Virus record (IMG/VR): IMGVR_UViG_3300031860_000003 | Location: 1-48,532 of that record | Source: a virus | Taxonomy: Duplodnaviria; Caudoviricetes | DNA length: 48,532 bases | Strand: one strand, 5' to 3' | Shown here: positions 3,561-36,699 of the stretch, piece by piece | Layout: every line of letters begins with the position of its first letter | How positions within the stretch are numbered: position 1 is the first letter of the stretch | Made by a program: the position numbers and the translations under genes | Notes under the pieces: model-generated | Databases searched by the model: none | The model's input: only the letters and a program-made list of their open reading frames with translations | What the model was told of the DNA's origin: nothing

Positions 3561-5063
3561 TCACCGCCCGCGCCGTCTGGTTCCGCCTGCCAGCGCCGGC
3601 GTCATCATCATCGACGGCTCGCTGACCGGGACCACCATCACGAAGCCCTGCGCGTCGGTCGGGCTGAACTGATACAGGCCGATAGCACCGTCGTTGAACA
3701 GGTTGAAGTACAGGGTGCCCTCGGCCGGGTTGGAGTGATTCGCCGGCACCACCGCCAGCCCGTTGGTCGGGGTGATCGCGTTACCCGGATTGCTCGGATC
3801 GGAATAGTGCGGCATACAGTTCACTTCGCCCAGGTCGTTGCCGAAGCCGCGGCCGATCAGCGCGCCCGACGTCGGGTCGCCCAGGCGGATCTCCACACCG
3901 ATCTGCAGCGGGTTGGCCGAGAGCTCGAGGCCGAACGCACCGAGATGGCCCCACACCACCGGGGTCCACGGAAAGGCTTGCGGCGGAATCGGAAACGAGC
4001 CGATCGCGGCGCGCTGGGATAGGCCACTAAAGCCGGTGAACGAAGCCTCCGGCATGGAGTAGGGCGAGGGGATCAGCTGGGAGATCGCCACCGGCACCCA
4101 GACCGGGTAGTTCACCGTGGCACCGTTGGTGGCGGGCGGGGTCGCCAGTGTGCCCGTCGCCCCGGTGTCGGCGTAGGCGTTGGTGGTGACGGTGGCGATC
4201 AGGTGGTTCTCGCCGCCCGAGGCCAGGCCGCGGTAGAGGTTGTAGCTGTCCGCGCCCGGCACCGTGTCCCAGATCAGGTTGGCGGTCGATCCGGTGCCCA
4301 CCGTGGTCGAGCACTCGTTGGACGGAGTGGACTCCCCGGCCGCCGAGTTGACCGTGACCATCCAGAAGTATTCGCCGGACAGGCTGCCGCCGGAGGACAG
4401 GTGCGACACCGCCAGCCCGGTGGGCGGGCTGAGGTGACCGGCCACGGTGCGCCCGGTGTAGCCCAGCACGTCGCCGGGTGCCACGCCGCCGGACAGGTCG
4501 ACGTCGGGGCACAGCGCCATCGCCGGCGCCGGCCCGGTCGGGCCGACCGGGATGGACAGGTTCATGTTCCACGTCGGATACAGCGGGGTGCCGCCGATCG
4601 GGTCCACGTAGGACGCCATATCGGGCGGGATGATGTCCACCGACGGGGTGATGATCGGGCACGGTCCCGGCGGCCCGGGGGTGCCCAGCATGACCCGCCG
4701 CCAGCTCAGCCCGTACCAGATGTAGGCCGACGCCCCGATGATCGCGCCCTTGGAGTCCACGTCGTCGAGCAGCCAGAACTTGCCGATGTCGGCCTGGCTG
4801 TTCTGCAGCGTCTGCGGCAGGTCGCTCGGGTCGTCGACGCTCATGTCGTTTTCGAGCTTGAGCGCGAACGCCGCCGGGCCGGGCACGCCCTGATCGCCCA
4901 CCACCGCCGGGAACACCAGCGACCCGATGTCCCCGTAAATCTCGTAGGTCCCCGAGAACGGGGACTGTGAGTCGGGCGGGATGACCGACCCGAACAGGTA
5001 GGTGCCGACCAGGTAGGAGGCCACGAAGGACTGGTCGCCGGGGGCCGAGAGTGAGGTTGTCAT
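3561..5063 (-). CDS. Minor tail protein with short collagen-like GxxG motifs and an FN3-like insert
   Basis: 500 aa; GTPGPPGP; PPTGLAVS...YNLYRG...YADTG FN3-like pattern; position after the hub gene. Confidence 0.8.
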   Translation of the reverse strand: MTTSLSAPGDQSFVASYLVGTYLFGSVIPPDSQSPFSGTYEIYGDIGSLVFPAVVGDQGVPGPAAFALKLENDMSVDDPSDLPQTLQNSQADIGKFWLLDDVDSKGAIIGASAYIWYGLSWRRVMLGTPGPPGPCPIITPSVDIIPPDMASYVDPIGGTPLYPTWNMNLSIPVGPTGPAPAMALCPDVDLSGGVAPGDVLGYTGRTVAGHLSPPTGLAVSHLSSGGSLSGEYFWMVTVNSAAGESTPSNECSTTVGTGSTANLIWDTVPGADSYNLYRGLASGGENHLIATVTTNAYADTGATGTLATPPATNGATVNYPVWVPVAISQLIPSPYSMPEASFTGFSGLSQRAAIGSFPIPPQAFPWTPVVWGHLGAFGLELSANPLQIGVEIRLGDPTSGALIGRGFGNDLGEVNCMPHYSDPSNPGNAITPTNGLAVVPANHSNPAEGTLYFNLFNDGAIGLYQFSPTDAQGFVMVVPVSEPSMMMTPALAGGTRRRGR

Positions 5064-7355: not shown

Positions 7356-9335
7356 TTATGCCTCGAAAATCGTTCCTTCTCCGGCCACCTCGGAAATGAG
7401 CCCGTACACGGCGGCGATGGTCTTGAATGCGGCGGCGAACGGATCGGATTTCTTCTTGTCCTCGCCGATCTTTATCGACACGGTCAGCGGTTTATCCCAC
7501 GACCATTCGCGTTTGATCCCGTACACGTTGTCGACGTAGATGATGCCGTTCTCCTCGAAGCCGACCCGGTCCCCGAGCTGGTAGTCGATGTTGGCCATCC
7601 ACGGATGCCCGTCGATGGTGTCGGCCTTGAACGCGGCGAAAGCCCTTGTCTTCCAATCGGCGTCGCGCAGCGTCAGCACGGACGCCAAGGTGTAGGCGGT
7701 GCCCGAGCCCTGCTCGAAATGCTCCTGCCAGGCCATGTCGCCGGCGATCAGCGCCCGGGCCGGATCGGTGTAGCGCTCCCAGGCCAGCAGGGTATTGTCC
7801 AGCTGGCCTTGATAGAGGTTGTCCAAACCGGGAGTGCCCGGAGTCTGCGCCTGACCGGGTATCCCGTTCTGCGTCTCCCACAACGAGATATAGGTATTGA
7901 TCACGTCGGACAATTGCGAGATGCCGTAGCGGATCGCAAAGGTGATCGCTTCATTGACAATGACCGGACTCTTGGAGCCGGTCATCATCGTCTTGACCGC
8001 GCCCTTGTTCCAGGTCAGGTCGGTGTTGATCATCCCGTTGTATTCGCCGTCCCACCAGATCACCTTCGGCGGCGCCGGCGCCACGTCCAGCAGCGCCTGC
8101 AGCAGGTCGGTCTGACTGACCCCGGCCGCATCGGCGAGCGTCTCTCCGTTCAGCGTGTTCGCCACGTCGTAGGTCTGACCGGTGGTCGGGTTCACCAGCA
8201 CCGGGGTCAGCAGGTCGTCGAGGGTGACCGCCACCGTGGAGATCAACCCGTCCGCGGCCGTGCCGGTGGGACCGGTGATCCCGTCGATCTGCTCGAAACT
8301 GCACACGCAGCAGTTGCGGATCGGCGCGGTCAGCGCGTTGATGTCGCCGCCCAGTTGGTCCACCAGGTTGGCGTCCAGGCCCAGCAGCCCCAGCACGTCG
8401 GCGCCCAGGCTGAGCAGGTTGGCGAGCTCGACGTTGGGGGAATCCGGGTCCGTGGTCAGGTAGACATACCAGCGCATGATGCAGCCCGAGTCGGTGAGCA
8501 CGTCCTTGAACGACTTGTACATGTCCGTCCAGGTGGCGCCGATCGCCGACCAGCGGGACTGGTCGAGCACCGGGTCCACGAACGCCACCTGGATGGGCCA
8601 CGCCAGAGGCGAGAAGTTCAGCAGCGCATCGGGACCGAGCGGGTTGATCCACTGCGCCGGGTTGAAGATGTTGGTGATCGTCGACCAGATCGGCATGAAC
8701 AGCCGGCCCAGGTTGACGAACGTGGACAGCGCGCAGATGGTGCGGCACGGTCCCGGCAGCACCCACATCCGCGGCAGCTGCACCTCGGGCGGGAAGATCG
8801 GGTTGGCCGCGATCAGGATGCGCTTGGCGTGCTCGTAGAAACTCAGCGCCGTCAGGGTGATCTCGTGGATACCCTTGTCGTCCTTCTTGACATGGATCTC
8901 GGTGACCTTGCCACCCCAGCGGGTTCTCCAGTCCTGCTTGGTCGGGATCGGGTCGATGAGCAGGTTGAGGTCGGTGAGCAGGTTGGTCTGCACCGTCATG
9001 TAGTCGGTGAGCCAGTTGTCGTAGAGGATGGTCACCGTGCACTTGCCGGTGTCGTCCATCAGTTCTTCCATGCTCACGTCGAGCTCGCCGTCGAGCTCCT
9101 GGAGGATCTCGATGTTGGAGTCGGCCAGCCGGATCAGCGGCTTCTGCTTGCTGCTCATCAGGGTGGTCAGCCGCACCCCGTTGAGGTAGGCCGCGGTCTG
9201 ACACGGCGCGCTGGCCAGGTCGGGCTGCTCGGGCACGCCCGGCGTGGGCAGGTGCTCGTCCACCCATTCGGTCAGCCGCATCCCGATGGTGGACTGCTGC
9301 GGCAGCAGGCCGATGCCGGACAGGAACTGGCTCAT
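7356..9335 (-). CDS. Minor tail protein (Gp37-like / hub)
   Basis: Start MSQFLSG at an ATGA overlap; RWGGKV, ANPIFPPEVQLPRMW and DYQLGDRVGF motifs of actinophage hub proteins. Confidence 0.85.
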   Translation of the reverse strand: MSQFLSGIGLLPQQSTIGMRLTEWVDEHLPTPGVPEQPDLASAPCQTAAYLNGVRLTTLMSSKQKPLIRLADSNIEILQELDGELDVSMEELMDDTGKCTVTILYDNWLTDYMTVQTNLLTDLNLLIDPIPTKQDWRTRWGGKVTEIHVKKDDKGIHEITLTALSFYEHAKRILIAANPIFPPEVQLPRMWVLPGPCRTICALSTFVNLGRLFMPIWSTITNIFNPAQWINPLGPDALLNFSPLAWPIQVAFVDPVLDQSRWSAIGATWTDMYKSFKDVLTDSGCIMRWYVYLTTDPDSPNVELANLLSLGADVLGLLGLDANLVDQLGGDINALTAPIRNCCVCSFEQIDGITGPTGTAADGLISTVAVTLDDLLTPVLVNPTTGQTYDVANTLNGETLADAAGVSQTDLLQALLDVAPAPPKVIWWDGEYNGMINTDLTWNKGAVKTMMTGSKSPVIVNEAITFAIRYGISQLSDVINTYISLWETQNGIPGQAQTPGTPGLDNLYQGQLDNTLLAWERYTDPARALIAGDMAWQEHFEQGSGTAYTLASVLTLRDADWKTRAFAAFKADTIDGHPWMANIDYQLGDRVGFEENGIIYVDNVYGIKREWSWDKPLTVSIKIGEDKKKSDPFAAAFKTIAAVYGLISEVAGEGTIFEA

Positions 9336-10539: not shown

Positions 10540-13500
10540 TCACACCGGCACCCCCGCGCCGCCCGCCATCTCCGGCGCGCGACTCCACCGGTTGACCGCC
10601 TGCTGCGCGCGGTCCACGATCTGGTCGGGCGGCACGCTGTTGGCGTTGACGGTGATCTGCGGGCCGCCGGTCATCCGCTGGGCCTGGTTACTCAGCGCCC
10701 CGACGATGCCGCCCAGACCGCCGGGGCCCTGGCTGCCCGACATCCAGGAGGCGACCTCGGAGGGGGACCGCGGCGGCGGCATCCCGGGCAGCGTGCCGGT
10801 GCGCTGCTGGTAGTCCATCAGCGACGTGCGTGCCGGGTGCATCAGCCAGTCCATCGCCGTGGGCTTGCCGTCGGCCGACCACACCGCCGACACGGTCTGC
10901 GCGCCGTCCTGCGTGCCGTCCTGCGTGGCATACCCCGCGCCGCCCGCTCGGCTGCCGCGTCGCGGCCTAGGGGTCGGGGGCGGCTCCGGAGGCTGCCCCG
11001 GGAGCGGAATCACGTCCTGTGGTCCAACCGAGCGACCCAGGTAGCCGGACCAGCTCCCGATGTCACTCTGATGGAACTGCCCCGGGCGCGCTTGGCCGCC
11101 CCCTTGTCCTGACGGCGGCGCCGCGTGCGGCGCCGGGGGCGTCACCGGGGGTTGCTCCGGCGGTGGCGCGTTTGTCACCGGGCCGTTCTGGTCGTAGATG
11201 CCTTGCGACACGCCGTCCCTGATCAGCTCGCGGCGCCCGTCGGGGAGCATGTACCACCGCTCGTGGGTCGGGTCGAGTTTATGGCCGCCGAAGGTGTCTC
11301 CCTCGTCCGCTGGCGGAGGAACCGCCGGTGGGGCTTTCGGCGTATCGGCCTTGGCGTCCTTCTTCTTGTAGCGCCCCGGACCGATGTAGTCCCAGTTGGT
11401 TGCCGGGCCGTGCGCGTGGGCGTACTCACCCTGCGAGTTGGGCGCGTCGTCGCCGTAGACGTCGCGGCCCTGGGCGTCTTTGCTGCTGGGCGTTTCTTCG
11501 GTAGCCGGGAATGCCGTACTCGGGCCGGGCCCTGCCGGCACCGGCGGGGGTGTGGCGCCCACCGCCGGGGCGCCGCCGCCGGTGGCGGCGCTGCTTCTGC
11601 CTTCGCCCAGCTGATTGGCGATGCCCAGCGCGGCCGACGCGGTGCCGGCGAACAGCTTCCAGATGCCCCACTGCCACGGCGGTTTGCCGAACACGTCGCC
11701 GAACCCCAGCTCCTGGGCCATGCCCTTGATCAGGCCCGCGCCCATCGCGGCGGCGTTCTCGTCCGGGCTGACGGCCGCCTCCTTGGCTTTGCTCTCCCAC
11801 GGCGGCAGGTTGTCGAGTTGCTCGGCCTGGTCGACCTGGGCGTCGTGCAGGCGCTCATTCGCCTTGCTCAGCGCCTTGCTGGTCTCCTTCTCCTTGTTGA
11901 TGGCCTCGGTGAGTTCCTTCTTGGCTTTCGCCTCGTTCGTCGTCTGGTGCTGGTCGTCGGTCATGAGGTCGAGGTACTTCTGCCAGGTGTCGGGGAACTT
12001 CTGTTTCGCGTCGTTGACGACCTTGTCCCAGGCGTCGTTGGCGCTGCGCAGGCGGGCCAGCGCGTCGGTTTCGGCCTGGCTCGCGTCATGCAGGGCCTGC
12101 GCATCGTCGGTGGCTGTGCGGGCCCGCATCTCGGCCTCGTGCAGCCACTTGGTGAAGTCACGGCGCACCTCGGGGGTCAGGCTCGCGCCCTTGTCGGGCA
12201 TGTCCATCGGGTAGAGGAACCAGCCGTAGGGTGTCTCGACGGCCTGCGCTGCCGGGCGCGGTGCCCCGGCCGGGGCGATCGGCGCCGGCCAGCCCGCCGG
12301 CGGCGGCGTCAGCGGCTGGCCCGGCCCGACCGGCGCGGGCACCTTCGGCAGGTTCGGGTCGCCGTGCACGGTCTTATCGACCAGTACGACCCTCGGTAGG
12401 CCGCCAATCTGGTCCCCGCCGCCCTGGTCGTCCCCGCCGGTGCCGCCGCCGGGCTGGCGCCGCAGCAGCCGGCCCTGGTTCATCGCGTGCAACACACCGG
12501 GCGGCGCCGCACCGGGTGGAACCAGCAGCTCGCCCGGCTCGGTGATGATCGGCACCATCCCGCCGCCCGCCATCCCGAGGCCCATCTGACCCAGGACGTC
12601 GCGGTACTGCGCCGTGCGATGCCGGTTCAGGATGAACGTCCCGGCCGGCACGCTCATCGGCACGCTGTCGCGGCCCGGCCAGTGATAACCCTTGATGATG
12701 CCGCCGTTGGCCATGCCGAGCAGGCCGCCCTCCTGGACCATCGCGACGGTGTGGGTCGTATCCGGCGTATCCGGCGCGGGGCCCCAGCCCGGGGCCCAGG
12801 TCATCGGCTTGTCGGGACCGTGCCATACCTTGCCGGTGAAGTTCTTGCCCTCTTTGTCGGAATACACGTCCCCGGCGCCGTCGACCCAGCCTCCGGCGTC
12901 GTCGACGTGAGTCATGTGCTCGTAGCCGCCCACGGGTGCCGGTGATTTTCTCTCGCTTGCCTTTGTGCCCCACCAGTCGACCGGTGCGCCCTTGGTGTCC
13001 TTGGTGATGGCCGCCGTCGCGGGGGGTCCGGCGGCCGGGGGACCGGCCGGAGGGTTGGCGGCGCCGGGCGAGGATGCGGCCGCGGCCGGCGAGGCCGACG
13101 TGGCCTTTCCGCTCACCCAGTCCCAGAACGCCTCCGGGTGGGGCAGCTTGAAACCCAGCGCCTCGAACACGCCCTGGACCAGACCGGCGAACAGGGGAGC
13201 CAGCGGCCCCGCAGCGTGACCCGTACCGCCCGCACCGCCCGCGCTGCTGACCGCGCTGACCAGAGACACGTTAGAGCCGGAGTTGAAAGTCAACCCGTTA
13301 CCGGAGGTGTTCCAGTTCGCCGGCAGCGTGCCGCTGGTGGCGAGCTGCGCGAGGTCCGGCGCGGAACCGGGCACCATCGCGAGGTGGACGTGGTCGTGGT
13401 GTTCCCCCAAGGTCTTCGCGTCGTAATAGGAGTTCCCCTGCAGCTTCCAGTCGCGGATGAATTTGCCGTCGCCGATGTTGAAGTCGGTGTTCCAGCCCCC

Positions 13501-32649: not shown

Positions 32650-32650
32650 G

Positions 32651-32723
32651 TGATTCCGATCGGACTCGAACCGATGTCGTCCGGCTTGAAAGGCCGGCAG
32701 GCTAACCGCTACCCCACGGAACC
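32651..32723 (-). tRNA. tRNA-Glu(TTC)
   Basis: Cloverleaf; loop CTTTCAA. Confidence 0.9.
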
Positions 32724-32727
32724 GGGG

Positions 32728-32799
32728 TGCGCCCGGTCGGGCTCGAACCGACGTCTCAGGATTAAAAGTCGAGAGCTAAACCATCTCAGCTACGGGCGC
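32728..32799 (-). tRNA. tRNA-Lys(TTT), two anticodon-stem mismatches
   Basis: Loop CTTTTAA; stem CTCGA/TCCTG. Confidence 0.82.
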
Positions 32800-32841
32800 C
32801 TGATTGGGCATGCGTTCAGGCTCCGGTTTACGCTGTCGCAT
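32776..32841 (-). CDS. Candidate leader peptide MRQRKPEPERMPNQAPVAEMV
   Basis: GAAGGAG SD, TATACT -10 at 32876-32881; codons match the downstream tRNAs. Confidence 0.7.
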   Translation of the reverse strand: MRQRKPEPERMPNQAPVAEMV

Positions 32842-32907
32842 TTCAGGCTCCTTCCGTGCTCGGGATGTCGCGTTGAGTATAACCTCCCACCGCGCCACAC
32901 TGGCGCA

Positions 32908-33954
32908 ATGGACGCTCAATCCCCGCCGCCGCCGGCGATCCCCGCCGATGACGACGAGCTGCACCAGATGCTGGTCGCCAAATTCCGCAGCCGCACCATC
33001 AGCTCCTGGGCGCTCACCGCACCCGCCATCCCCAGCCTGATCGACGAGTACATCGACACATGCGACAAGATGCTCGTCCCGGTGTCCCGGCCCTGGGCGT
33101 CGTTGACCCGCGAGGACAAGCGCGACATGCTCGCGCCCACCATCCAGGAGGCATTCGACGCCTCCCCCCGGTCGCGCGTCACCCTCGACTGGGATTCCAA
33201 CACCGACGTCCTGCGTATCTCCGCGCGGGTCCAGAGCATCAGCGACAGCTACGACTCCTGGCTGGACGATCGCGGCTGGGCCCCGTTCGGCACCCACGCC
33301 GACGCGCGCGTGTGGCTGTTGGCCGAAGAACTCTCGGGGGGCCGGCGCGACATCCCCATCCTGGACATCGGCGCCGGCGTCGGCCGCAACGCGATCGCGC
33401 TGGCCCGGCACGGCTACCCGGTCGATGCGGTCGAGCTGGCCCCGCGGTTCGCCGCGCAGATCCGTGCCAACGCCGACTACCTGGAGCTGACCAACATCCG
33501 CGTCCTGGCCTGCGACGTGTTCGACACCGAGGACCTGCGCGACGACTATCAGCTGATCTTCGCCGCCGAGGTGGCCACCGACTGGCAGTTCGCCCAGTGC
33601 CGCAACCTGTTCGAGCTCGCCGCCAAGCGGTTGGCTCCCGGTGGCCTGCTGCTGTTCTCCGCGTTCATCGCGCGGCAGGGTTACACCCCCACCCAGGTGG
33701 CGCGCGAGCTCGGCCAGCACGCCCTGTGCCGCCCGTTCACCGCCGACGAGATGACCGAGGCGGCGGCGGGCCTGCCGCTCGAGCTGATCGCCGACGACTC
33801 GGTCTACGACTACGAGAAGGGGCACCTGCCCAAGGAGGCGTGGCCGCCTGCAATATGGTTCGAGGCTTGGGCCACCGGCAACAACCTGTTCGCCGGCGCG
33901 CCCGATGCGTCCCCGATGCAGCTGCGCTGGCTGGTCTACCGGCGCAACTACTGA
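32908..33954 (+). CDS. Class I SAM-dependent methyltransferase
   Basis: ILDIGAGVGRN motif I, VDAVEL and LAPGGLL; high GC3. Confidence 0.9.
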   Translation: MDAQSPPPPAIPADDDELHQMLVAKFRSRTISSWALTAPAIPSLIDEYIDTCDKMLVPVSRPWASLTREDKRDMLAPTIQEAFDASPRSRVTLDWDSNTDVLRISARVQSISDSYDSWLDDRGWAPFGTHADARVWLLAEELSGGRRDIPILDIGAGVGRNAIALARHGYPVDAVELAPRFAAQIRANADYLELTNIRVLACDVFDTEDLRDDYQLIFAAEVATDWQFAQCRNLFELAAKRLAPGGLLLFSAFIARQGYTPTQVARELGQHALCRPFTADEMTEAAAGLPLELIADDSVYDYEKGHLPKEAWPPAIWFEAWATGNNLFAGAPDASPMQLRWLVYRRNY

Positions 33955-34047: not shown

Positions 34048-34117
34048 TGCCCCCGAGTGGAGTCGAACCACCGCAACCGAGTTTCGGAAACTCAGGGCCA
34101 GATCCGCTGGCGAAGGC
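34048..34117 (-). tRNA. tRNA-Arg(CCG), atypical D arm
   Basis: Loop TTCCGAA; D hairpin CCAG/CTGG directly abuts the acceptor stem. Confidence 0.7.
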
Positions 34118-34148: not shown

Positions 34149-34222
34149 CCCCGCCGGAGGGATTCGAACCCCCATTTCATGGCTTAGAACACCACCGCTG
34201 ATCCAGATTCAGCTACGGCGGG
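34149..34222 (-). tRNA. tRNA-Arg(TCT)
   Basis: Cloverleaf; loop GTTCTAA. Confidence 0.82.
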
Positions 34223-34271
34223 CAGGCGAGACTGAGCGTTGTCGCCTTCGTCTCGCCTGCCGTCGCATCAT
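34209..34271 (-). CDS. Candidate leader peptide MMRRQARRRRQRSVSPARRS
   Basis: GGTGAGG SD; uses all six Arg codons and both Gln codons. Confidence 0.7.
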   Translation of the reverse strand: MMRRQARRRRQRSVSPARRS

Positions 34272-34350
34272 GACCTCACCTAACCGAACCAGACCACAGC
34301 CTGCCGTGCCCTATCATGCCCGACCTTGCCAGACCTATCCGGACCGGACC
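34271..34350 (-). repeat. GGY-NN pentamer array 2 (13 of 16 units perfect)
   Basis: Minus strand GGTCC GGTCC GGATA GGTCT GGCAA GGTCG GGCAT GATAG GGCAC GGCAG GCTGT GGTCT GGTTC GGTTA GGTGA GGTCA. Confidence 0.88.
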
Positions 34351-34371
34351 ATACGGCATCACATCACTGCG

Positions 34372-34595: not shown

Positions 34596-34671
34596 AGGTG
34601 GGCAACTCCCCTCCGACGAGAGGGGCGGCAGTTACCAGATCCGTAGCTGGGTTCGCCGATGGTAGTTACCC
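34596..34671 (-). ncRNA. Unknown structured RNA, copy A
   Basis: Fills the Gly-Asp spacer; homologous to 35673-35769. Confidence 0.55.
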
Positions 34672-34853: not shown

Positions 34854-34926
34854 TGCGCTCGGCAGGGATCGAACCTGCGGCCTGAAGATTAAGAGTCAAC
34901 AGCTCTACCGACTGAGCTACGAGCGC
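34854..34926 (-). tRNA. tRNA-Lys(CTT), two anticodon-stem mismatches
   Basis: Loop CTCTTAA; stem GTTGA/TCTTC. Confidence 0.85.
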
Positions 34927-34985
34927 GGATCAACCGGGGCGGTCGTCGGCTTTCGCCGCCCCTGTGTGCGCGTTCGTCGCATCAT
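34917..34985 (-). CDS. Candidate leader peptide MMRRTRTQGRRKPTTAPVDPRS
   Basis: AAG plus four Thr codons directly upstream of tRNA-Lys(CTT) and tRNA-Thr(TGT). Confidence 0.6.
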   Translation of the reverse strand: MMRRTRTQGRRKPTTAPVDPRS

Positions 34986-35360: not shown

Positions 35361-35450
35361 GTATGAAGTTGGGTCCGGTCCTTCGCGTCTTTCGTTCCGG
35401 CTACCCCCACCGAGGTCTGACCTCGCGCTGGTGGACGAGGGGCGCTAGCG

Positions 35451-35669: not shown

Positions 35670-35672
35670 TTT

Positions 35673-35769
35673 GGTGGTGGCGCTCCCCTCCGGCGAGAGG
35701 GGCGACACGCTCCCCGAGTGGGGAGCTCATACCGGAACCGTAGCCGGATTGGCCGTTGGTAGCGTCACC
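35673..35769 (-). ncRNA. Unknown structured RNA, copy B
   Basis: Homologous to 34596-34671 with an extra hairpin; starts 7 nt after TGGACC-N17-TACCGT. Confidence 0.55.
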
Positions 35770-35816
35770 GTGTACCACGGTAAACCCTGCCGCCGACAAG
35801 GTCCATCCATTTTCCG

Positions 35817-36080: not shown

Positions 36081-36116
36081 CTAGCGCCAGGGATACGGTC
36101 GTGGGGCGAAGAACAT
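36081..36116 (-). CDS. Candidate leader peptide MFFAPRPYPWR
   Basis: TATGAT 7 nt before the ATG (leaderless spacing); Pro/Tyr/Trp codons upstream of tRNA-Pro, -Trp and -Tyr. Confidence 0.72.
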   Translation of the reverse strand: MFFAPRPYPWR

Positions 36117-36132
36117 GGTGATCATCATAGCG

Positions 36133-36204
36133 TGCGCTTCCAGGGATTCGAACCCTGACTGGGCCGGGTTTAAGCCAGCTGCCTCTGCGTTGGGCTAGAA
36201 GCGC
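36133..36204 (-). tRNA. tRNA-Leu(TAA), short variable loop
   Basis: Cloverleaf; loop CTTAAAC. Confidence 0.85.
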
Positions 36205-36205
36205 G

Positions 36206-36278
36206 TACACCCTCTGGGATTCGAACCCAGACTTGACCGGGTTTGAGCCGGATGCCTCTCCCGTTGGGCTAAGGGTGC
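36206..36278 (-). tRNA. tRNA-Leu(CAA), short variable loop
   Basis: Cloverleaf; loop CTCAAAC. Confidence 0.85.
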
Positions 36279-36284
36279 TTGCCG

Positions 36285-36358
36285 TACTCCCGGTGCGATT
36301 CGAACGCACACTGTCTGGTTCCTGAGACCAGTGCTTCTGCCAGTTGAGCGACGGGAGC
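36285..36358 (-). tRNA. tRNA-Leu(CAG), short variable loop
   Basis: Cloverleaf; loop CTCAGGA. Confidence 0.85.
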
Positions 36359-36476: not shown

Positions 36477-36477
36477 G

Positions 36478-36562
36478 AGGAGGGCTACGGGATTGAACCG
36501 TAAGCGGTGAGGCTTGCTCGGGTTAGCAACCCGGCTCCGGCGACCAACCGGAAAAGCCCTCC
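36478..36562 (-). tRNA. tRNA-Ser(GCT)
   Basis: Loop TTGCTAA; long variable arm. Confidence 0.82.
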
Positions 36563-36566
36563 AGAC

Positions 36567-36614
36567 TTAGCTAAGTCGTAAGGGACTAGATGACAGCAAT
36601 CGGTGGTCGCGCAC
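36567..36614 (-). CDS. Candidate leader peptide MRDHRLLSSSPLRLS
   Basis: TACACT 7 nt before the GTG; 8 Leu/Ser codons upstream of the Ser/Leu tRNAs. Confidence 0.75.
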   Translation of the reverse strand: MRDHRLLSSSPLRLS

Positions 36615-36631
36615 GTCAAGCAGTGTAGCAG

Positions 36632-36699
36632 TGCCGCACAAGGGATTTGAACCCTTCCCGTTCGCTTGGTTAGGGCTCACGGTCTGCCGTCGGTGCGGC
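36632..36699 (-). ncRNA. tRNA-like element or pseudo-tRNA
   Basis: Perfect 7-bp acceptor and AAGGG-TTCAAAT-CCCTT T arm; no canonical anticodon arm. Confidence 0.5.

Follow-up and report, generated by a model that had tools for sequence, protein, structure and literature searches.

Why phages carry tRNA genes is a long-open question, and the locus described here raises it in a specific form: what is the role of a short reading frame rich in leucine and serine codons that lies immediately ahead of a block of serine and leucine tRNA genes? A current proposal is that phage tRNAs counter host tRNA depletion, and a mycobacterial tRNase has been described that restricts a phage (PMC10264068 and PMC13273310, in the available text of both). 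The window, i.e., the whole stretch of DNA analysed, is a virus record of 48.5 kb with approximately 67% G+C. Genes for terminase, portal, protease, capsid, and tail proteins lie on its minus strand. A tRNA array at 36562-32345 was called with 28 tRNAs by ARAGORN, and at least two further tRNAs missed by the caller, Ser(CGA) and Arg(CCG), were read by eye.

Mycobacteriophages were the top-ranked matches of the window tRNAs, which points to a mycobacterium or a close relative as the host. The phage is siphovirus-like and related to the cluster C phages that carry arrays. Its array is flanked by a small upstream gene and the large terminase. Copies of the array were found in a metagenome contig of 117,852 bp (L392, one mismatch over 4380 nt) and in L001 (no mismatches over the same length), and it was absent from the relatives L002-L006 and L008. 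The genome of the phage is larger than the window. A SAM-dependent methyltransferase gene is placed within the array on the opposite strand (window ~32920-33950, +, in the frame 32650-33954), and glycosyl- and methyltransferase genes are found upstream too.

The layout of the reading frame that had drawn attention to this locus was confirmed in sequence, coordinates, and counts. The hexamer TACACT at 36627-36622 is followed by a 7-nt spacer and a GTG codon at 36614, from which a putatively leaderless frame of 15 codons and a stop runs on the minus strand (36567-36614). The hexamer is preceded by TG-C, i.e., an extended -10, and the putative promoter element of the TGn plus TANNNT type covers 36622-36630 (-). 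The stop codon (36569-36567) is located 4 nt ahead of nucleotide 1 of tRNA-Ser(GCT) at 36562 and within a palindrome at 36564-36577. On recount, eight of the 14 codons after the start were Leu or Ser, each of them different. The frame had also been said to head the array. Strictly it does not quite do so, because a tRNA-like element sits directly upstream at 36699-36632. This element (36632-36699, -) adjoins the promoter, has irregular D and anticodon arms with a CTA triplet in the latter, was called Pyl(cta) by relaxed ARAGORN, and folds with z=-3.9. None was seen at the matching place in the IMG/VR phages G003 and G004.

Some tRNA operons are under T-box control. Covariance models gave no Rfam leader, T-box, or attenuator family at the leader locus in the window, L128, L393, L394, or L248. 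A sigma-70 scan, which needs a -35 box, returned no promoter at the leader. The sequence TTGACG at 36619 was rejected as a -35 box, as no suitable -10 was seen by eye downstream.

The block behind the frame lies on the same strand and begins with tRNA-Ser(GCT) (36477-36562), and tRNA-Leu(CAG), Leu(CAA), and Leu(TAA) make up its remainder (36132-36358), all called by ARAGORN. The second gene, Ser(CGA), which the earlier note had counted in the block, is readable by eye at 36476-36388 with an atypical T arm, and neither ARAGORN nor Rfam called it. Its homologs are called Ser(cga) in L015, L248, and Myrna. Only five of the eight Leu/Ser codons have a cognate tRNA in the block, the exceptions being TCA, TCT, and CTT, and a cognate leader codon is present for four of the five tRNAs. 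TCG, the codon of Ser(CGA), is indeed absent from the window leader, and it is lacking in those of G003 and G004 as well. Cluster C phages also appear to have two unannotated tRNAs in which the T arm is atypical (L128 at ~1201-1291 and 1295-1379, L394 at 1181); Ser(CGA) was read by eye, and Ser(GGA) was called by relaxed ARAGORN. Cluster C1 is said to avoid these two anticodons in the available part of PMC10264068.

The Leu/Ser enrichment has a chance probability of approximately 0.001 by dinucleotide shuffles of the ORF body. At least eight Leu/Ser codons occurred in 192 of 76,817 open 14-codon windows over the six frames of the window DNA, and the remaining two frames of the leader have 2/13. 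Short ORFs of the form TANNNT-N6-8-RTG are found only four times in the whole window, three of them within the tRNA array. That all eight codons differ has P=0.08 under uniform synonymous choice and P=0.002 under the gene usage of the phage. Codon non-repetition is weak in the window leader alone and strong only across orthologs.

For the comparison with orthologs, all retrievable Ser/Leu blocks led by Ser(GCT) were inspected, i.e., those of the window, of three IMG/VR phages (G001, G003, and G004), and of the cultured cluster C phages ET08, Bxz1, Myrna, Cane17, and Tonenili. The leader ORF was found in nine of these nine blocks (eight distinct sequences), which are related and therefore not independent trials; two of the nine, Myrna and Cane17, were retrieved with the ET08 leader as query, and the others via a neighbouring protein, the Pro/Trp/Tyr motif, or tRNA-Leu. 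Examples of the leader sequences are MQRLRRSSTSLRLS, MHARRLLRSRSSLRLSR, MFARLSLSSSLRLS, and MFAFRLSLSSSLLS. YANNNT-N7-RTG is kept across the nine orthologs, with variation in the middle bases of the hexamer. The 7-nt spacer was demanded in the extraction of orthologs, and looser scans (5-8 or 6-8 nt) gave 7 too for the window, G001, G003, Cane17, and Tonenili.

The orthologs have 13, 14, or 16 codons after the start and differ by in-frame indels only. Each holds 7-10 Leu/Ser codons in frame versus 1-4 in the other frames, and the frame-specific enrichment exceeded dinucleotide content in five orthologs (P 0.001-0.007). The codons of the window and ET08 leaders show six synonymous and five non-synonymous differences with two identical, those of ET08 and Cane17 five synonymous and no non-synonymous ones, and the aligned codons of all 28 leader pairs sum to 106 synonymous, 119 non-synonymous, and 130 identical. 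The final Ser codon is AGC, AGT, or TCG, and its codon box was switched in ET08 and Myrna. Within their own leaders, 62 of 66 Leu/Ser codons are not repeated, and they lean to rare ones (TTA, TCT, and CTT make up 0.3%, 1.7%, and 2.6% of their families in phage genes). This diversity and the lean to rare codons fit the sampling of isoacceptors rather than of one amino acid. The ET08 leader region matched 205 phage records, 197 of them over at least 80% of its length, and no CDS was annotated across it among the 40 matches listed. Judged by these comparisons, the leader is a real and conserved feature, and its ORF is conserved as a reading frame.

Outside the phages, the leader-Ser stretch had just three marginal matches when searched as DNA against 401 Mycobacteriaceae genomes. 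The tRNA block was matched in three of 400 genomes of the G002 genus (Mycobacterium), with one genome unscored; in two of the three the match was a Pro/Trp(/Tyr) cassette preceded by a leader, and in the third it was a lone Leu tRNA. Pattern scans for more arrays found at least three tRNAs at 3 of 119 loci, and 2 of 14 were relevant, neither of them new. Further pattern scans found an array in none of 100 genome loci and no new array of this kind among 119.

Leaders with matching codons were also found at other blocks of the array, all on the minus strand. The second unit (36081-36129), recognized by scan and homologs, consists of a -10 box, 7 nt, and a leaderless Pro/Trp/Tyr leader (ORF 36116-36081) before tRNA-Pro, Trp, and Tyr, and has homologs in G001, G003, G004, Bxz1, G472, and G608. 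The scan further identified an Arg/Gln leader (34209-34271) before Arg(TCT), Arg(CCG), and Gln(TTG), and a Shine-Dalgarno-led Lys/Glu/Asn/Gln/Met leader (32776-32841) before Lys(TTT), Glu, Glu, Asn, Gln(CTG), and Met. The latter holds a cognate codon for six of its six tRNAs. The Arg(CCG)-like gene, which was missed by ARAGORN and read by eye, is at 34048-34117. The weakest match is a candidate Lys/Thr/Arg leader (34917-34985) before Lys(CTT), Thr, Gly, Asp, Ile, and Arg, which runs into the tRNA. Four of the six tRNAs have a cognate codon in it (P=0.2), RTRT..GRRKP recurs in four phages, and the rule-based scan gave no match. For the Cys-His-Gly-Ala-Phe-Val block, no leader was found in the window.

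By the rule-based scan, four of seven spacers in the window have a short ORF matching the next four tRNAs, versus a mean of 0.34 for shuffled tRNA order (0/1000). Two matches each were scored in G001, G003, and G004 (19, 23, and 18 of 1000 shuffles, respectively), one weak match in Mareelih (237/1000), and none in three plasmid arrays, cluster M Nanosmite, part of the Daubenski array, and the Bxz1 main array. All three cognate codons occur in the Pro/Trp/Tyr leader of Bxz1, which is nevertheless too long for the scan to score. With block limits drawn by eye, the real pairing of leaders and blocks ranks 1/120 in the window and in G003. The leader of a rearranged block in G001 matches eight of nine tRNAs, and an Ile-containing leader stands ahead of a block beginning with Ile in G004. 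In the relatives, what the leaders contain changes with the content and rearrangement of their blocks.

Two genomes of the G002 genus have a Pro/Trp(/Tyr) tRNA cassette headed by a matched leader of the leaderless kind (L380 ~8100-8190, -; L381 8073-8192, +). The G608 cassette lies amid housekeeping genes, i.e., arabinosyltransferase, MFS, and phosphoglucomutase, and the G472 cassette adjoins an integrase.

The earlier note proposed a Leu/Ser leader whose codons correspond to the tRNAs that follow. This is supported by conservation in 9/9 blocks, synonymous substitution, codon diversity, and parallel leaders at other blocks. A short 5' ORF enriched in codons tied to the downstream genes, as for a ribosome-mediated leader-peptide attenuator, appears to be present. 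Most likely, the leader serves as a leaderless sensor that is read by the ribosome, responds to a shortage of individual tRNAs, and would gate and de-repress the phage tRNA block behind it, a variant of leader-peptide attenuation in which we infer the switch and output steps. Transcription would very probably start at the G of the GTG (36614), and the RNA would be translated without a leader. In mycobacteria a 5'-end ATG or GTG is sufficient for translation (PMC4633059), and genes downstream of leaderless sORFs are controlled by ribosomes that stall on these sORFs (10.1101/834739), according to the available portions of these reports. Because nearly every Leu/Ser codon differs, the leader would probably sample single tRNA isoacceptors, e.g., after cleavage by a host nuclease, and would answer Ser or Leu starvation too.

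The switch may then depend on where the ribosome stands. A ribosome stalled at codons 6-13 would cover the pyrimidine-rich 3' half of the leader, so the 5' acceptor strand of tRNA-Ser(GCT) would be free to fold. A terminating ribosome would occupy this strand, and the released leader would pair with it. We lean slightly towards this step. The misfolded state could in turn silence the entire block. Transcription would most likely end prematurely, probably through Rho, because most tRNAs of a block have codons in its leader and a conserved U-tract is lacking; we see the chances of this step as even. With only 3-4 nt between stop codon and tRNA in the window family, the acceptor strand would be covered by the terminating ribosome itself (+12 mask).

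The switch predicted from folding is clearer in the orthologs than in the window. The predicted leader:tRNA hairpin (36555-36587, -), with the palindrome 36564-36577 as inner arm and an outer arm that pairs with nt 1-8 of tRNA-Ser(GCT), is weak in the window (z=+0.74, nascent piece) and stronger in orthologs. Direct pairing between the 3' half of this ORF and tRNA-Ser nt 1-8 is predicted for the window family. For cluster C and the Pro/Trp/Tyr units, the spacer gives a predicted 1:2, 2:3, 3:4 layout with the tRNA 5' strand as final segment, similar to that of multivalent leader-peptide attenuators (PMC13236596, available part). When the whole tRNA was folded without a ribosome, the acceptor stem had P of at most 0.10 in eight of nine Ser/Leu orthologs, and a ribosome masking the Ser/Leu codons raised it up to 0.6-1.0. 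The six Pro/Trp/Tyr leaders behaved likewise, and P was back to approximately 0 with the ribosome at the stop. The window is the exception, with a full-length fold that favours the tRNA (P=0.88 without ribosome), and its remaining leaders gave mixed folds (P 0.91, 0.87, and 0.04 without ribosome).

Several controls set the weight of these folds. In the window, nascent pairing was not above controls, i.e., synonymous recodings (112/200), shuffled leaders (89/150), and several tRNAs that have no leader (0.60-0.86). Shuffled leaders block the acceptor stem too, in 0-23 of 60 trials, and the cluster C state at the stop codon flips with the assumed ribosome footprint. Covariation is scant (1/9 pairs in the window family, 0/7 in cluster C). 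Ser/Leu codons are pyrimidine-rich and pair by themselves with the purine-rich tRNA strand. The palindrome 36564-36577 has no other match in the window even allowing 3 mismatches. A DNA operator was rejected for it, as it is a single copy and its arms are built from other sequence in G004, ET08, and Cane17; the inner part of an RNA hairpin appears the better reading.

On the output side, the number of T in the 8 nt past the paired tRNA strand is 4 in the window, 3 in G003, and 1-2 in six others. A canonical intrinsic terminator was rejected because this U-tract is not conserved and none was called at the window leader. The leader bodies are C-rich, with C > G in all eight, and of approximately 45 nt, which is short for a Rho site. 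One paper reportedly links Rho and uORFs in mycobacteria. The main rival explanation keeps the same sensor and limits its output to RNA maturation: the first tRNA would fold and be cut by RNase P, or else be degraded, with no transcription termination. We regard this as unlikely, roughly a one-in-several prospect. It would suit a pairing partner that is the acceptor strand itself, the mere 1-4 T in tRNA nt 8-15 with the U-tract not conserved, and two internal leaders that begin right behind the 3' end of the preceding tRNA with no evident promoter. However, leaders that hold codons for most or all tRNAs of a block (6/6, 8/9) fit control of the whole block and not of the first tRNA, and separate -10 boxes are found at several blocks.

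Enterobacterial thr and ilv leaders are multivalent leader-peptide attenuators. The sensor of tRNA shortage proposed here resembles the multivalent attenuator of M. tuberculosis ilvB1 (PMC13236596, available part), where the regulatory codons of the uORF stand for more than one amino acid and the RNA has alternative hairpins, which are predicted in our case. In the ilvB1 type, biosynthetic enzymes are controlled by way of a U-tract-bearing intrinsic terminator (same part of that source), whereas the phage leaders have no conserved U-tract and their last segment lies in the tRNA. With no U-tract terminator, the leader falls outside the classical trp/ilvB1 type. It is also like the polycysteine leaderless sORF attenuators of mycobacteria (Ms5788A; 10.1101/834739) in its leaderless 5' short ORF and in the use of one logic at several loci, and, as proposed, in a stalled ribosome that blocks a pairing which otherwise hides a downstream element. 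The Ms5788A type has a run of a single amino acid and frees the Shine-Dalgarno site of a protein gene, as far as the available text describes it, whereas the phage leader has mixed non-repeated codons with a tRNA 4 nt away, and the hidden element would be the acceptor strand. With neither a tandem run nor a Shine-Dalgarno target, it does not belong to the polyCys type.

Long tRNA arrays are known from other genomes. The cyanobacterial trn L-array is likewise long and is induced by translational stress, but unlike for the phage leaders, its control was proposed via a DNA-binding repressor at one promoter (PMC8421152, available part), and the terms "leader" and "attenuat" are absent from the text of that report. 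Among mycobacterial tRNA array units, group G4, i.e., the cluster C phages, has a related array with Ser/Leu and Pro/Trp/Tyr blocks (PMC5966550, available part); "leader", "promoter", and "attenuat" are absent from the texts of PMC5966550 and PMC12803027. No report of leader-peptide control of phage or bacterial tRNA arrays was found in the literature searched, chiefly the main texts of openly available papers. If the acceptor strand of the tRNA is the switch partner, this would be a form of attenuation for which no description was found in the same literature.

The induction of the cyanobacterial array by translational stress (PMC8421152, available part) would also agree with a general sensor of translation stress or antibiotics, whiB7/ermCL-like, in which Arg-rich and Pro motifs pause the ribosome and the Ser/Leu match is minor. 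Arg codons, mostly CGA, are present in nearly all leaders, and several have an Arg-Leu-Arg or Arg-x-Arg motif. However, a single Arg is left in Cane17 and Tonenili, and such a sensor leaves unexplained that the leaders track each block and its rearrangements. We therefore hold it to be distinctly improbable.

It is more improbable still that the ORF is an incidental, non-regulatory by-product of a promoter and of pairing between the tRNA and a 5' leader rich in pyrimidines. Mycobacterial transcript starts are often RYN, by which RUG starts arise easily (10.1101/834739, available part), and the absence of pairing above controls in the window would be expected. This explanation is opposed by the enrichment in one frame beyond dinucleotide content in the five orthologs, by indels that are in-frame only, by the synonymous changes, and by matched leaders of quite different composition at other blocks. 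A peptide acting in trans as a small phage protein has hardly any chance, since the C-terminal LRLS shared by five of eight distinct sequences is set against an N-terminal half that diverges freely, rare codons favoured over the usual ones of the phage, and a position fixed relative to the tRNA.

The preferred reading, a sensor of tRNA shortage, has consequences for the question of phage tRNAs. If it is true, a codon-sampling leader per block would mean that phages sense the loss of tRNAs and answer it separately for each block, something that plain codon compensation would not require. More broadly, and tentatively, as we give it somewhat less than an even chance, actinophage tRNA arrays might be banks of self-regulating modules. 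In each, a mini-ORF would sample the isoacceptor codons of its block, the ribosome would decide the folding of the first tRNA via its own acceptor strand, and the phage would detect which host tRNAs had been destroyed by a defence nuclease and supply only the block concerned. The same leader is carried in approximately 200 deposited records of cluster C mycobacteriophages. Because it is present in these cultured relatives, the anti-depletion idea for phage tRNAs is directly testable in M. smegmatis.

Other elements were found near the array. The exact PafBC promoter consensus, tGTCgg(N10)tA(N3)T (PMC8635444), occurs in the window at 35777-35798 (-), in L007 at ~8171-8192, and in L383 at ~4775-4797. 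In the window and G003 the site precedes the Cys-His-Gly block, in G001 the Pro-Trp-Tyr leader, and one tRNA block may be driven by this host DNA-damage activator. The window has a second match at 12810 (+). An inverted repeat, its 6-bp arms separated by 6-7 nt, has six copies in the window (44616, 33973, 26577, 21457, 10513, and 6692, -). The Ser/Leu promoter and the Lys/Glu leader of G003 and G004 each have this repeat immediately upstream, and it is possibly the site of a phage regulator.

Two related structured spacers sharing a terminal hairpin are located at 35671-35770 and 34596-34671 (-), with z=-3.2 and -2.6. Two similar copies precede tRNA-Cys in G004, and these spacers are possibly small RNAs. 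The Gly(TCC)-Ala spacer at 35361-35449 (-) is retained in G001 and, in looser form, in G003 and G004; it has neither a matched ORF nor a strong fold. A tRNA-like gene with two anticodon-like stem-loops (CCT and TCT, both Arg), labelled "???" by ARAGORN, is found in G004 (L015 8352-8449). Ahead of the Arg/Gln leader of the window, imperfect 5-nt repeats follow one another in a run at ~34272-34360 (-).
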